A stretch of DNA of 14,504 nt from Escherichia phage Bf23. The stretch lies in the sequence record NC_042564.1. One strand, given 5' to 3'. The position numbers and the translations under genes are program-made. Positions within the stretch are counted from its first letter, which is position 1. Each line of letters starts with the position of its first letter. The notes below the pieces were generated by a model. That model worked only from the letters and a program-made list of their open reading frames with translations. It searched no databases and was not told the DNA's origin. Below, one piece after another: positions 3,019-14,447 of the stretch.

Positions 3019-3132
3019 AATTGAAAACTCGCAGGGTTAGCGAAACCATCCTCAATTAGCATGTTCTAGAATACTAATCAAGTTATCTCCTATTGCACGC
3101 AGCTCAAGACGAGTACGAATTTTCAATTGTGG
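3015..3132 (-). ncRNA. candidate structured RNA / precursor-processing stem flanking the 5' end of tRNA-His
   Basis: 17-nt inverted repeat ccacaattgaaaactcg (3015-3031) vs cgaattttcaattgtgg (3116-3132), one mismatch, enclosing 84 nt with no credible ORF; the first arm includes the first 4 nt of tRNA-His. Confidence 0.3.
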
Positions 3133-3247
3133 CGGCTCTCAGAAACTCTTCTATTCTAGCCCCAGAAGCTTACCCCCGAACGCCTGTCGGGAAAGTCTTT
3201 CCAAGAGCATCAAATAGCACCGTTACACTTTGAGCCATTGATATATC

Positions 3248-3332
3248 AAGGAACAGAAGGATTTGAACCTTCACGAGATAGACCATTTATCTCAACCGCT
3301 TTTAAGGTATATTTCTAGGAGTGGATGTTCCT
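3248..3332 (-). tRNA. tRNA-like gene, class II length (85 nt), isotype undetermined (possible Leu-TAA) or pseudogene
   Basis: perfect T-arm gaagg/atttgaa/ccttc and perfect 7-bp acceptor (3249-3255/3326-3332) but no canonical anticodon stem; CCA not encoded; contains hairpin agata/gaccatt/tatct. Confidence 0.35.
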
Positions 3333-3386
3333 AGTAAACCTATTCGGCAGTCCCGTCTACCAATTCCGGCATATTCCAAGAATTTT

Positions 3387-3560
3387 TTATAAACCAGCAG
3401 AAGCCTCATTTAAAGCATCAACAATAGCTTCACGCTGGGTCATTCCATACCCGGTGGAGTCTAGGTGAGGCAAATAGGCTGCCCACCCATTATCTGTTTC
3501 ATGAAGGAATGCTTTAAATTTTTTACCGTCCTTCATTGTTACAGTAACTGTTTTGCTCAT
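3387..3560 (-). CDS. small ORF (57 aa), possibly HicB/UPF0150-like fold
   Basis: ATG at 3558-3560 with AAGGAA SD; translation ...ETDNGWAAYLPHLDSTGYGMTQREAIVDALNEASAGL resembles the HicB N-terminal domain pattern; below ORF-track size cut-off. Confidence 0.4.
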   Translation of the reverse strand: MSKTVTVTMKDGKKFKAFLHETDNGWAAYLPHLDSTGYGMTQREAIVDALNEASAGL

Positions 3561-3677: not shown

Positions 3678-3768
3678 TGGCGGAAGAGGAGAGATTTGAA
3701 CTCTCAAGCCGTTTTACCAGTCAGCCACTTTCCAAGCGGTTTTCGTCGCCAATTCGATTTGCTCTTCC
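3678..3768 (-). tRNA. tRNA-Ser (anticodon GGA), tentative
   Basis: 91 nt class II; encoded CCA, G73; perfect T-arm gagag/atttgaa/ctctc; perfect acceptor 3682-3688/3762-3768; anticodon loop TTGGAAA with one mismatch in stem; 3-bp D-stem. Confidence 0.5.
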
Positions 3769-3801
3769 AATAATAAGATGATGCCTCTATCACACCAGGC
3801 A

Positions 3802-3880
3802 GTTACGCCTCGCTGGGATTCGAACCCATTAAAACAGCTCAACCGAGATAGTAGGTTTAATTTACTCTGACCATCAAATT
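3802..3880 (-). other. orphan T-arm-like element (degenerate tRNA remnant?)
   Basis: tggg/attcgaa/ccca T-arm-like hairpin at 3814-3828 but no pairing partner for an acceptor stem and no anticodon arm. Confidence 0.25.
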
Positions 3881-3957
3881 TGGTGCGTGACAAGGGATTC
3901 GAACCCTCAAAACCCGACTTCTAAGGACGGTATGTATGCCAATTCCATCAATCACGC
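3881..3957 (-). tRNA. tRNA with anticodon TAG (Leu-type anticodon) on a short-variable-arm scaffold; isotype uncertain
   Basis: encoded CCA, T-arm aaggg/attcgaa/ccctc, acceptor 3885-3891/3951-3957 with one G-U, anticodon loop CTTAGAA with one U-U mismatch in stem, 3-bp D-stem, only 5-nt variable loop. Confidence 0.4.
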
Positions 3958-5694: not shown

Positions 5695-5703
5695 AAAATA
5701 AGT

Positions 5704-5824
5704 CATTCTAGGCAGGATTCGAACCTGCTATCACTTGTGCGGACTTACGAGAACCATTCTTTCACTCGAATCGAACGAGCTTCTGCCCTAGCCAAGCTGG
5801 TTTCCCCATCAACCACGCTAGAAT
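5704..5824 (-). ncRNA. composite tRNA-like element with two T-arm motifs (disrupted or expanded tRNA?)
   Basis: perfect T-arm gcagg/attcgaa/cctgc (5712-5728) and perfect 7-bp acceptor-like pairing attctag(5705-5711)/ctagaat(5818-5824), but 121 nt long with a second T-arm-like ctcg/aatcgaa/cgag (5765-5779) and no canonical anticodon arm. Confidence 0.3.
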
Positions 5825-5946
5825 GTTTGATTGTTTTCAGTGCAAGAGTCCGAGTCTTGGACACGACCGCTTCGCAAGTACATAGGCAGCTTATCATGAG
5901 TCAGCACTTCCGAATTGCTAGCTCCGTGTTCTGCACTGAAATTTTA

Positions 5947-6591: not shown

Positions 6592-6694
6592 ACTTATTTC
6601 CTCAGTTATTAATGAAAATGGTATCTGTGGCTGAATTCGATGTCAGCAATGATAGCTGGTTTGGCTACCGGTTTACTTAACTCTACACAGAATT

Positions 6695-9872: not shown

Positions 9873-9950
9873 TGGTGGCTCCCCGAGGATTCGAACCTAC
9901 GTACCTTCCAGTTATGAGCTGGGTGCTCATACCATATGAGCTTGAGAACC
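9873..9950 (-). tRNA. tRNA with anticodon CAT (Met, initiator or Ile2 type)
   Basis: encoded CCA, acceptor 9877-9883/9944-9950 with two G-U, D-arm gctc/gagc, anticodon loop CTCATAA; T-stem has only 3 good pairs. Confidence 0.5.
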
Positions 9951-10850: not shown

Positions 10851-11831
10851 ATGACAGAAGAAGTAGCTAAGAGTCCTGAAACCGTCGCTAGCGTAGCAGC
10901 AGAACTGCATCGTCACGAGGAATCAGATAAGAAAAAGTGGGAGAACGTCAAAGCCTACGAAGAAGAACATCGTGTTCACGATGATAAAGATGAAGAAGAT
11001 GACGATGATGAACATTGTCATAAATATGGAAAACATAAAATGCAAGAACCAGTAAACGTATTTACTAACGGCTTCCCTGGCATGGGTGCATTCCCAGCTA
11101 ATGCAAGTGCTTTCGGTGGAGAAGGTATGGGCCTATTCGGAGCTATCCTAATCGGTGCTCTATTAACAGGCGGATTTGGTGGTTTTGGTGGTTTTGGTCG
11201 CGGTGCTGGTGTTGCCGCTGAAGGAACCGCTGTGGACGCGATCCTTTCTAACCAAGATACTGCAAGTATTCTAGCTGCAATCAATACTACTCGTACAGAA
11301 GCTAATCAGGGCACCGGGGCTGTTCTAAGCGCAGTAAACGGTGTGGGAGCTGCTCAAGCTGCTAGCACTCAGCAAGTTCTGACTACTATCTACGGTACAG
11401 GTGCTAATCTGTCAAACCAGATCTGTGCTGAAACTCGTAACGTTATTCAGGGTCAGTTCGATCTTTCTCGTCAGATGGATCAATCTTTCGCTGCTAACCA
11501 GATCGCACGTGCTCAAGATAAGTTTGACTCTGCTCAGATTGCTTTCCAGCAGTCTATTCAGACTAACAACCAGTTTGCCGCTGTTCAGGCTCAGATGTGT
11601 GCTAACCAGAATGCTATCGAACGTCAGCTTGCCGAATGTTGCTGTGAGCTTCAGACTGCGATCGCTGGTGTAACTACTGCACGTATCCAGGACGAACTGA
11701 ATGAATGCCGTCTGCGCGAAGCAATCGCTGCAGGTAGCGGTGCAAATGGTCAGGTAATCAACCAAATCGCTGTAAGTCTTGGTGCTATCACTCAGACTCT
11801 GGCTGGTCTGCAGGCTAAACTGCCGGCTTAA
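10851..11831 (+). CDS. hypothetical low-complexity protein, 326 aa: acidic His-rich N-terminus, Gly-rich hydrophobic segment, Gln/Ala-rich helical C-terminal region with Cys cluster (ECCCE)
   Basis: ATG at 10851 with AGGAGG SD 9 nt upstream (ORF-track start 10791 lies within the promoter/leader); GGFGGFGGFG segment; opposite-strand ORFs 11018-11284 and 11412-11894 look like antisense artefacts; codons look E. coli-optimal by eye. Confidence 0.7.
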   Translation: MTEEVAKSPETVASVAAELHRHEESDKKKWENVKAYEEEHRVHDDKDEEDDDDEHCHKYGKHKMQEPVNVFTNGFPGMGAFPANASAFGGEGMGLFGAILIGALLTGGFGGFGGFGRGAGVAAEGTAVDAILSNQDTASILAAINTTRTEANQGTGAVLSAVNGVGAAQAASTQQVLTTIYGTGANLSNQICAETRNVIQGQFDLSRQMDQSFAANQIARAQDKFDSAQIAFQQSIQTNNQFAAVQAQMCANQNAIERQLAECCCELQTAIAGVTTARIQDELNECRLREAIAAGSGANGQVINQIAVSLGAITQTLAGLQAKLPA

Positions 11832-13650: not shown

Positions 13651-14152
13651 TTTAAGTATTTTTAAGAACTCTCGTAAAAACTCTTAAAAATACAGACGAT
13701 ACCGGGAGAGTCATAAGTCTCACTCATTAAGTATTTCAAGACAAAATACAGTAACGTCTATTATTTTCCAGTTTAAGTCAAGGTGACTTAGTGGTTATGT
13801 CCTGCGGTATGCTGAGGACTCGGTTAGGCTAGGGTCATGACTCCCCACCTTTTTGCTGCTACTCAACAGGAGTTATCGCGAATTACCTGTGCTATTGTGC
13901 ACCATTAGTGGCATCTCTCATGCCAGCATTTCCCACTTTGTGGATAGTTTGAAAAACTACTCCGATATGGAGAAAGAACTTCACTATCCTAGAATACCTT
14001 CTAAAGTTCTTCTTTAGCCTGGACATAGTTAAATCGTAATAAAACTATTCAGCAGACTGGTTGGTTAGTCTGGAACCAACTACCGCGTGGTTTAGGCAGT
14101 GCGCAACTAACCTCGGAAGCTTTTACGTTAAAAGCATCAGTTATCCAGTTCT

Positions 14153-14224
14153 TACCGTCCGTAGGATTCGAACCTACATCTTCCACCAGTTACGGCTTGA
14201 TAATACCAATTATACTAGGACGGC
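14153..14224 (-). tRNA. tRNA-like gene, isotype undetermined (possible pseudogene)
   Basis: perfect T-arm gtagg/attcgaa/cctac (14161-14177) and 6-7 bp acceptor pairing (14154-14160/14218-14224) but no recognizable anticodon stem; CCA not encoded. Confidence 0.35.
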
Positions 14225-14447
14225 AGTGTTACTACATAAGTGATTTCCACACCCCACTATTTATAAATTAGAGAAGAGTTTAGGGGAGAGGTTTCAGACG
14301 CCCCATTTTATACGTTCTAGCCACTAACCGGGATTGCCGCCCCCTGTGTACTAGTTTTACAACTAACCCACCGACTCTATTCAGTGCACTCCGGTTGGGA
14401 TTCTGCACTCAGCGTAATCGGCTCGCTGTTCCCTAATTTATGAATAT

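Follow-up and report, generated by a model that had tools for sequence, protein, structure and literature searches.

RNA1 in the tRNA gene array of phage BF23: a selected, non-decoding RNA on a leucine-type tRNA body

Background

The transfer RNA (tRNA) gene array of Escherichia phage BF23, a member of the T5 family, includes a short segment that resembles a tRNA gene lacking its central part. In the 14,504-nucleotide (nt) stretch of the phage genome analyzed here (record NC_042564.1; the entire stretch is referred to as the window), this segment occupies positions 3248..3332, and a reading made from the letters alone (hereinafter the sequence-only reading) described it as an 85-nt, class II-length tRNA-like gene with a perfect acceptor stem and T-arm and without an anticodon stem, possibly a decaying Leu tRNA or a structural tRNA-like RNA. 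Which RNA does this segment belong to, can that RNA decode, and what is being conserved in it? The segment is part of the BF23 orthologue of RNA1, an RNA named in T5 records, and the explanation that we consider probable for the locus as a whole is a conserved, non-decoding RNA on a class II (Leu-type) tRNA body that would serve as a processing scaffold and would carry surfaces for a partner.

Identity of the locus

Over 801 nt around the flagged site, identity reaches 99.9% with Escherichia phage Bf23 (OR083247) and 98.5% with T5, and the window corresponds to the tRNA gene array of BF23, in which ARAGORN and Rfam identify 23-24 tRNA genes; all of these, like every RNA gene in the window, are on the minus strand. 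At 3248..3332, no call was made by ARAGORN in default mode or by Rfam at the gathering score. The T5 annotation, converted to window coordinates (window position = L001 coordinate + 2599), places the following feature at this site:

3237..3380, minus strand: RNA1, 144 nt (T5 annotation, gene rna1, T5s03; also annotated in Salmonella phage 5).

RNA1 is labelled "tRNA-like stable RNA with unknown functions" in the records of T5 (NC_005859/AY543070 and AY692264) and Salmonella phage 5 (AJ604531), and is one of three adjoining misc_RNA features (rna1, rnaI and rnaIII) located between tRNA-Ser1 and tRNA-His in T5 and phage 5. The T5 rna1 gene (NC_005859, 30501-30644) and the window sequence are 98.6% identical across all 144 nt (100% for BF23), and the flanking genes are the same as in T5, namely tRNA-Ser1, the open reading frame (ORF) T5.063, RNA1, RNAI, RNAIII and tRNA-His; the BF23 genome record OR083247 does not annotate RNA1. 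Since the flagged 85 nt lie within the annotated RNA1, they represent the 3' two-thirds of this RNA. The flagged element is the BF23 orthologue of the T5-family RNA1, with nothing substantive separating it from the RNA1 of T5 and phage 5; as an object, RNA1 is already known from the GenBank records of these two phages, where it comes without a structure or a function. A coding origin of the locus was considered and rejected given that no ORF spans RNA1 on either strand.

Fold of RNA1

In permissive mode, the Rfam tRNA model RF00005 aligns over 3378..3248 with 25.9 bits (gathering score 29) and a 47-nt insert in the anticodon loop. Over the same span, ARAGORN in intron mode (-i) delineates a class II tRNA-Leu(taa) body of 91 nt that is interrupted by 40 nt between positions 31 and 32, and the unconstrained minimum-energy fold of the 144-nt RNA1 is the same cloverleaf (-38.2 kcal/mol, z = -2.4). 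Covariance-model scoring thus yields a tRNA alignment that stays below the gathering score, and standard tools do find a tRNA fold, albeit only with a 40-47-nt insert and past the limits 3248-3332, which were too short: the 5' strand of the acceptor lies 46 nt further upstream. The parts of RNA1 are listed here from the core, then 5' to 3':

3248..3378, minus strand: 131-nt tRNA-like core, which begins at position 1 of the acceptor and ends with the discriminator (ARAGORN -i, Rfam and covariance model R1, introduced below).
3372..3378, minus strand: acceptor 5' strand UGGAAUA, pairing with 3255..3249.
3353..3369, minus strand: Leu-type D-arm CCG-GAAUUGGUAGA-CGG with G18G19; stem 100% paired and invariant.
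3347..3351, minus strand: 5' strand of the anticodon stem, ACUGC (helix 3).
3300..3346, minus strand: 47-nt extension in place of the anticodon loop (folding and covariation).
3326..3332, minus strand: AGGAACA, the 3' part of the 5' strand of the apical stem together with the start of the apical loop.
3321..3328, minus strand: apical 8-nt loop ACAUCCAC; 7 of the 8 positions invariant in 32/32 distinct orthologues.
3295..3299, minus strand: 3' strand of the anticodon stem, GCGGU (helix 3).
3275..3293, minus strand: long variable arm GAGAUA-AAUGGUC-UAUCUC (helix 6, 100% paired).
3256..3272, minus strand: T-arm GAAGG-UUCAAAU-CCUUC, 100% paired (Rfam, ARAGORN -i and alignment).
3248..3255, minus strand: acceptor 3' strand UGUUCCU and discriminator U, without an encoded CCA (sequence, ARAGORN -i).
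3237..3247, minus strand: 3' trailer GAUAUAUCAAU, part of the annotated RNA1 and adjoining the 5' end of RNAI (sequence and annotation).

The features of a class II tRNA are present, including the acceptor stem (6-7 base pairs, bp), the D-arm with G18G19, the T-arm with UUCRA and the long variable arm, with the exception of a U.U at 1-72. The 5-bp anticodon stem ACUGC/GCGGU leads, in order, into an A-rich internal loop, a 4-bp stem AGGU/ACCU (helix 4), a second internal loop, also A-rich, a 6-bp stem CUAGGA/UCCUAG (helix 5) and the 8-nt apical loop. The T-arm claimed by the sequence-only reading is there exactly as described and fully paired among orthologues. The hairpin agata/gaccatt/tatct, which had been taken for the only candidate anticodon arm and a defective one, exists as AGAUA-AAUGGUC-UAUCU and is the long variable arm; an anticodon stem, reported as absent, is present in full, although it closes 47 nt rather than a 7-nt loop.

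Conservation and covariation

Full-length RNA1 is found in 491 phage records (Escherichia, Salmonella and Klebsiella phages), with identity down to 74%. The orthologues collected from GenBank records and IMG/VR comprise 32 distinct sequences, every one 131-132 nt long, to which the counts below refer. On the cloverleaf with the extended arm, 95.7% of the alignment cells are standard pairs, and compensatory change affects 13 pairs, with both sides altered in 95 cells. The covariation score is 0.291 compared to 0.127 for shuffled alignments, and none of 500 shuffles reaches the observed value; kinship among the RNA1 sequences exaggerates the significance of such shuffle controls, which counts against the reading favored here, and the safer evidence comes from sliding the partners by 1-3 columns, whereupon pairing drops to 40-49%, and from the distinct pair types. 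An alignment of 16 distinct sequences gives the same covariation picture.

Wherever a stem varies among Tequintavirus, Epseptimavirus and Sugarlandvirus phages, the changes are compensatory. In the acceptor, each of pairs 2-7 is formed in 29-32 of the 32 sequences, with both sides changed in four of these pairs (among them 3-70 as A-U, G-C or U.G; 5-68 as G-C, A-U or C-G; 6-67 as U.G, U-A or C-G), whereas 1-72 is a conserved U.U non-pair in 29/32. Pairing in the anticodon stem amounts to 99.4%, and three of its pairs have changed in both strands. Within the extension, helix 4 is replaced in relatives by GGG/CCC or GAGU/ACUC (two covarying pairs) and helix 5 by UAGAGA/UCUCUA or GCAGA/UCUGC (three covarying pairs); T5 is the sole exception to the invariance of the apical loop, with one base different (ACAUCCGC). 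The fourth pair of the variable arm is A-U, U-A or C-G, and its loop AAUGGUC is the same in 31/32 sequences.

A covariance model built from RNA1 (R1) gives 123-160 bits for 38 matches, one per phage locus, among the loci searched; the window scores 151.7 bits, a value that holds by construction, the window sequence being part of the R1 training alignment, whereas the IMG/VR members are outside the training set. Ordinary tRNA-Leu genes score 45-61 bits with the same model and the phage's own tRNA-Leu(UAG) 29-40 bits. The conservation of RNA1 is far beyond chance.

The comparison with orthologous loci, which the sequence-only reading had proposed as a check, hence bears out selection on a tRNA-like fold and fails the acceptor helix chosen there. 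According to that reading, the gene is confined to 85 nt (3248..3332), with AGGAACA/UGUUCCU as the acceptor and no anticodon arm. The two strands (3332..3326 with 3255..3249) do form a perfect 7-bp helix in both BF23 and T5, and we estimate that a perfect 7-mer complement within about 120 nt would occur by chance roughly once in 100 cases. Nevertheless, the helix is 78.1% paired among the orthologues compared to 77.0% after column shuffling and shows no covariation; four of its seven pairs vary solely by breaking, with pair 51-127 kept in 8/32 sequences, and near relatives with the 3' strand UAUUCCU already disrupt it. The conserved partner of the 3' acceptor strand, as revealed by covariation, is the upstream UGGAAUA strand; forcing the AGGAACA helix in BF23 costs 7.4 kcal/mol relative to the cloverleaf, and the perfectly conserved D-arm would be left without explanation. 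Having failed the covariation test, the AGGAACA/UGUUCCU pairing is therefore a coincidence of the T5/BF23 lineage rather than a selected pairing, and we assign the 85-nt model a practically negligible probability.

Some RNA1 copies depart from the common pattern. The RNA1 of Salmonella phage GEC_vB_N3 (positions 203-333 of its locus, L006) is a mosaic in which the 5' acceptor strand and D-loop come from a UGAAGUA lineage and the remainder from the T5/BF23 lineage (3' strand UAUUCCU), resulting in an A.C mismatch at 3-70 and a G.U at 5-68; this suggests recombination inside the RNA1 gene of this phage. The Klebsiella Sugarlandvirus RNA1 (L018, L019 and L020, 240-378) has a wholly different acceptor, GAUGCCG/CGGGGUU, with G.G at 4-69 and discriminator A73. 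In the Klebsiella phages, the terminal helix can be extended by about 4 bp past position 1, and the mature ends may differ from those of a standard tRNA.

Can RNA1 decode?

The bases preceding the 3' strand of the anticodon stem differ by lineage (CUUAAAA, CUCAUAAA, CCGAAAAC or UCGACGG). The CUUAAAA loop, with its UAA anticodon, is confined to the T5/BF23 lineage, and the other lineages mostly lack U33; the calls that ARAGORN can be forced to make on RNA1 change with the lineage as well, from Leu(taa) to Phe(aaa) and Val(aac), and one GenBank record labels RNA1 as tRNA-Phe(aaa). This calls for caution in annotation, where, according to the lineage, tRNA finders that tolerate introns will name RNA1 tRNA-Leu, tRNA-Phe or tRNA-Val. 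The anticodon stem of RNA1 encloses 47 nt instead of a 7-nt loop that has U33 and an anticodon kept among the 32 orthologues, and RNA1 neither attains the Rfam gathering score (25.9 vs 29 bits) nor receives a default ARAGORN call. The discriminator is U73 in 29/32 sequences, with A73 solely in the Klebsiella phages, whereas all the compared genuine phage tRNA-Leu genes that share the RNA1 D-arm have A73, which is the main identity element for leucyl-tRNA synthetase in E. coli. RNA1 has no encoded CCA, in contrast to the neighboring T5 and BF23 tRNAs and RNAI. Because it lacks a conserved anticodon and U33, mostly has U73, carries U1.U72 and does not encode CCA, RNA1 cannot decode as a tRNA-Leu.

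Two explanations would nevertheless derive RNA1 from a leucine decoder in a more direct manner. One is that RNA1 is a genuine intron-containing tRNA-Leu(UAA), from which 40 nt are removed after transcription to provide T5 and BF23 with a decoder of UUA and UUG codons. ARAGORN -i indeed calls a tRNA-Leu with an insert, the UAA anticodon loop is perfect within the T5/BF23 lineage, and T5 and BF23 otherwise lack a tRNA-Leu(UAA). However, the other lineages have neither U33 nor a consistent anticodon at the same positions, and the compared genuine tRNA-Leu genes have A73 where RNA1 has U73 and no CCA. Group I tRNA introns exceed 200 nt and are located inside the anticodon; the 40-nt insert between positions 31 and 32 is too small and misplaced for such an intron, and it is not at the canonical 37/38 site either. 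No Rfam intron family matches the insert, even at E values up to 10, and E. coli is not known to have a tRNA splicing endonuclease. Taken together, these points make an intron highly improbable.

The other is a tRNA-Leu(UAA) pseudogene that was inactivated by a 40-nt insertion and is now drifting, in line with one of the initial suggestions for this site. Deletion of 40 nt from the BF23 or T5 sequence yields a clean tRNA-Leu(taa) with the loop CUUAAAA, the only other tRNA-Leu of T5 and BF23 is UAG, and the RNA1 body is 58-67% identical to genuine phage tRNA-Leu genes. The body is, then, of the Leu type, with a D-arm as in phage tRNA-Leu, but decay is not what the sequences record. Drift would bring loss of pairing and indels; instead, 95.7% of the cells are paired, there are 13 compensatory pairs, and 32/32 sequences are 131-132 nt long. 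The helices of the insert are themselves maintained by compensatory changes, its loop is invariant across the three genera (as is, nearly, that of the variable arm), and the RNA remains full-length in the 491 records at identities as low as 74%. We find this explanation hardly credible. RNA1 is neither a decoding tRNA nor a decaying pseudogene; it is a selected, non-decoding, tRNA-scaffolded RNA, and of the earlier suggestions, that of a structural tRNA-like RNA is upheld by the cloverleaf fold and covariation, and the Leu character by the D-arm.

Origin of RNA1

The D-arm GCCGGAAUUGGUAGACGG is common to RNA1 and genuine phage tRNA-Leu genes, and a search with the D-arm motif UGCCGGAAUYGGUAKACGG also retrieves 19 ordinary phage tRNA-Leu genes, 16 of which are UAA. 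Once the insert is removed, the RNA1 body shows 58-67% identity to the phage tRNA-Leu genes compared and bears only a loose resemblance to the other tRNAs of the phage. When 5,426 E. coli genomes were searched by blastn with this insert-free body, nothing was matched, even at E = 10; on these grounds, the idea that RNA1 arose recently from a host tRNA or from a prophage copy was rejected. The best reading of these sequence comparisons is that RNA1 is an old derivative of a phage tRNA-Leu in which the anticodon loop was swapped for a new domain. A scan of bacterial genomes with the insert motif gave at least 120 loci. The RNA1 covariance model found no match at E values up to 1e-6 in the 80 of these that were searched, and no D-arm or variable-loop motif is present among the insert-motif matches listed; for these two reasons, the bacterial loci look like chance matches.

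Possible processing and function

No promoter of its own was found for RNA1, which in many relatives begins 3 nt after a tRNA-Ser gene; RNA1 is therefore probably cut from a polycistronic early tRNA precursor. In the mechanism that we propose, RNA1 would be transcribed within the polycistronic early tRNA transcript and processed at its 5' end by RNase P. The acceptor, T-arm and elbow are the parts of a tRNA that are recognized by RNase P and the enzymes that process tRNA ends. The tRNA body would act as a scaffold for folding, processing and stability (that is, resistance to exonucleases), which would account for the "stable RNA" annotation, whereas a protein or RNA partner would probably be contacted by the extended arm, the apical loop, the loop of the variable arm and the A-rich internal loops, which are conserved without a tRNA-related reason.

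The same observations can be read purely in cis: RNA1 would punctuate the polycistronic transcript with a tRNA shape, guiding its processing by RNase P and exonucleases and shielding neighboring RNAs, with no function in trans. Its position between tRNA-Ser (or ORF T5.063) and RNAI/RNAIII, the lack of a detectable promoter of its own, and the fact that the acceptor, T-arm and elbow recognized by RNase P are the best conserved parts fit this possibility. However, the covarying 47-nt extension, the invariant 8-nt loop and the near-invariant loop of the variable arm would all be superfluous for such a role, and RNA1 stays constant while its neighbors vary between phages. A purely cis-acting element accordingly strikes us as improbable.

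The final step, which is the weakest one in the proposed mechanism, concerns the role itself. A viable T5 mutant, T5-123, lacks 29191-32442 (PMC11464382); the deletion takes in RNA1 (30501-30644), and RNA1 is therefore accessory and dispensable in laboratory E. coli. Our best guess is that RNA1 would be an accessory tRNA mimic in phage-host conflict, acting in host takeover or counter-defence. Phage tRNAs counter tRNA-cleaving defences, as in the case of the T5 tRNA-Lys against PARIS (PMC11464382), so that roles of a related kind can reasonably be considered for the tRNA-like stable RNAs of both T5 and T4. More specifically, and as a tentative proposal that we hold to be possible rather than likely, RNA1 would be a natural tRNA-scaffolded effector whose loops ACAUCCAC and AAUGGUC bind a tRNA-binding factor of the host (such as a defence nuclease that targets tRNAs or an enzyme specific for Leu-tRNA) and either neutralize or redirect it, and RNA1 would be one member of a recurrent, hitherto unrecognized class of phage RNAs that combine a tRNA body with a foreign domain. 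Candidates for other members of this class are T5 RNA2, T4 RNAC and a family with the closing stem GGUGUGG described below.

Several observations, in addition to the kinship of the aligned sequences, weigh against this reading. RNA1 has no recognized partner or phenotype, the only evidence of its expression available to this analysis is the GenBank label "stable RNA", and no paper on its function was found in the literature searched. Within the window, the two loops have no more complementarity than chance would give (the only match for the apical loop is the loop itself, and those for the variable loop are as expected at random), and their longest complement in E. coli rRNA (16S, 23S and 5S) is 7 nt, a length reached by shuffled loops in 398/500 and 217/500 trials. 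The loops could be invariant owing to the needs of tertiary folding and not to a partner in trans. With regard to a specific defence, RNA1 was rejected as a suppressor of PARIS because the sensitivity of T5-123 to this system is rescued only by a fragment containing tRNA-Lys, with no effect of other fragments (PMC11464382). What the present analysis adds is an RNA1 structure supported by covariation, selection without decoding, and two invariant loops as targets for mutation; the structural model offers concrete handles for testing the idea of counter-defence.

Comparison with known RNAs

The closest relatives in terms of the body are class II tRNA-Leu, especially UAA, with which RNA1 shares the D-arm sequence, the 3-bp D-stem, G18G19, the T-loop, the long variable arm and the cloverleaf as a whole; it differs in the 47-nt structured extension that stands for the anticodon loop, the absence of a conserved anticodon and U33, U73 in 29/32 sequences, U1.U72 and the absence of CCA. 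Among RNAs with tRNA-like domains, transfer-messenger RNA (tmRNA) similarly joins an acceptor and T-arm module to a non-tRNA domain. In tmRNA, the tRNA-like domain is of the Ala type with G3.U70, and there are pseudoknots and a tag reading frame, whereas RNA1 has no tag reading frame, retains a full D-arm and has G-C, A-U or U.G at 3-70, never G.U; in the window, there is no ARAGORN tmRNA call and no Rfam match to such families. The design of RNA1 is also reminiscent of the engineered tRNA scaffolds attributed to Ponchon and Dardel (2007), in which replacement of the anticodon loop by a foreign RNA reportedly gives stable, correctly processed RNA in E. coli. In both, the acceptor, D-arm and T-arm would be left intact and the anticodon stem would bear the cargo, an analogy of design logic only, RNA1 being natural and conserved.

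Phage T4 encodes two small stable RNAs within its tRNA cluster, RNAC (species 1 RNA) and RNAD, with unknown roles (PMC3014915, PMC9697503). Like RNA1, RNAC is encoded among phage tRNA genes, is stable and measures about 140 nt, and it combines a T-arm of the tRNA type with a stem similar to an acceptor and a long hairpin similar to a variable arm. On T4 rnaC (L107, 2409-2547, minus strand), ARAGORN in intron mode forces a tRNA-Leu(taa) with a 5-nt "intron" over the 3' ~95 nt, with the acceptor ACGGAAC/GUUUCGU and the T-arm CCGGG-UUCGAAU-CCCGG; RNAC is Leu-tRNA-shaped, too. The local alignment of RNAC with RNA1 scores 20 (shuffle mean 15.2, maximum 27), and the RNA1 covariance model has no match in the T4 locus at E values up to 1. 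Homology of RNA1 to RNAC or RNAD was rejected since the alignment does not rise above the shuffles and the model finds no match; RNAC is the nearest analogue elsewhere, not a demonstrated homologue.

A separate, unannotated family was detected in tRNA arrays on unrelated phage contigs, three of which are larger (80-277 kilobases):

L030, 1669-1824, plus strand: Leu-type element.
L049, 2485-2643, minus strand: Leu-type element.
L088, 802-956, minus strand: Leu-type element.
L100, 13879-14054, plus strand: Leu-type element.

These four elements align together and share a Leu-type D-arm (UGCCGGAAUUGGUAKACGG), a closing stem GGUGUGG...CCAC and an insert of ~90-110 nt, which is followed by ACGUAAU (3/4) and then by the T-arm and the acceptor 3' strand. 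They go unrecognized by Rfam at the gathering score and by ARAGORN, and score 32-39 bits with the RNA1 model; the loci L026, L059, L062/L080 and L105 look like further variants of the same family. L100, a short viral contig, carries a GOLLD RNA (11234-11702, plus strand, 168.5 bits) in addition to a large tRNA array and the odd Leu-type element. Given that the T5 RNA2 (see below) and these four elements share the tRNA design with an enlarged middle, the combination of a tRNA body with an insert may be recurrent in phages.

The ORF upstream of RNA1

A 57-amino-acid ORF (3387..3560, minus strand), a homologue of T5.063 assigned to phrog_16298, is located 6 nt upstream of the annotated RNA1 start. 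It shows a match to the Pfam LSM family at 14.9 bits (threshold 23.4), and its AlphaFold model (predicted local distance difference test score, pLDDT, of 76) has a beta-beta-beta-alpha arrangement without a significant PDB match (best E = 0.2). The ORF is missing at this position in many phages that carry RNA1. A role of this protein as an Sm/Hfq-like partner of RNA1 was rejected in view of the sub-threshold LSM match, the lack of PDB support and the frequent absence of the ORF.

Other tRNA-like RNAs in the array

Further RNAs of the T5 annotation have counterparts in the window:

3130..3236, minus strand: RNAI, stable RNA (T5 annotation), directly after RNA1.
3020..3125, minus strand: RNAIII, stable RNA (T5 annotation).
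5702..5825, minus strand: RNA2, BF23 copy of a T5 tRNA-like stable RNA (96.8% identity).
6619..6692, minus strand: RNA3, BF23 copy of a T5 putative tRNA-like RNA (T5 annotation).

RNAI starts with GGCUC and ends with GAGCC-GCCA, that is, with an acceptor-like stem and an encoded CCA end, and RNAIII is closed by a 9-bp terminal stem. In phages TrudiGerster and EscoHU1, an ORF is annotated across the RNAI region, with its start AUG spanning the RNA1/RNAI boundary. RNA2 and RNA3 are called by neither ARAGORN nor Rfam. RNA2 has the acceptor CAUUCUAG/CUAGGAUG, the T-arm CAGG-UUCGAAU-CCUG, a D-like hairpin and a middle enlarged by ~60 nt, so that its design, tRNA ends with an enlarged middle, is the one seen in RNA1.

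Some of the ordinary tRNA genes of the array are unusual as well. The BF23 tRNA-Leu(UAG) (3881..3957, minus strand) is 77 nt long, with a short variable region of class I length, whereas its T5 counterpart is an 85-nt class II tRNA; tRNA-Leu of the bacterial type is normally class II. At 3678..3771 (minus strand), there is a diverged copy of the T5 tRNA-Ser2(GGA), for which a note in the T5 record states that it is not convertible to an amber suppressor; ARAGORN calls the T5 copy, whereas the BF23 copy is called neither by ARAGORN nor by Rfam at the gathering score. The adjacent spacer (3772..3880, minus strand) contains an orphan T-arm-like motif, GGGUUCGAAUCCCAG, where T5 has the HNH endonuclease gene hegC, and this motif may be a tRNA remnant. 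The tRNA at 9876..9950 (minus strand), which is identical to the T5 tRNA-Ile2(CAU), is detected by Rfam (38.2 bits) and missed by ARAGORN. Finally, at 14152..14225 (minus strand), ARAGORN calls a tRNA-Ser(act) that scores 39.6 bits with the Rfam tRNA model, and the same call is made in T5 (L021, 14932-15005), inside the 719-nt feature annotated as "RNAX, stable RNA with unknown functions".

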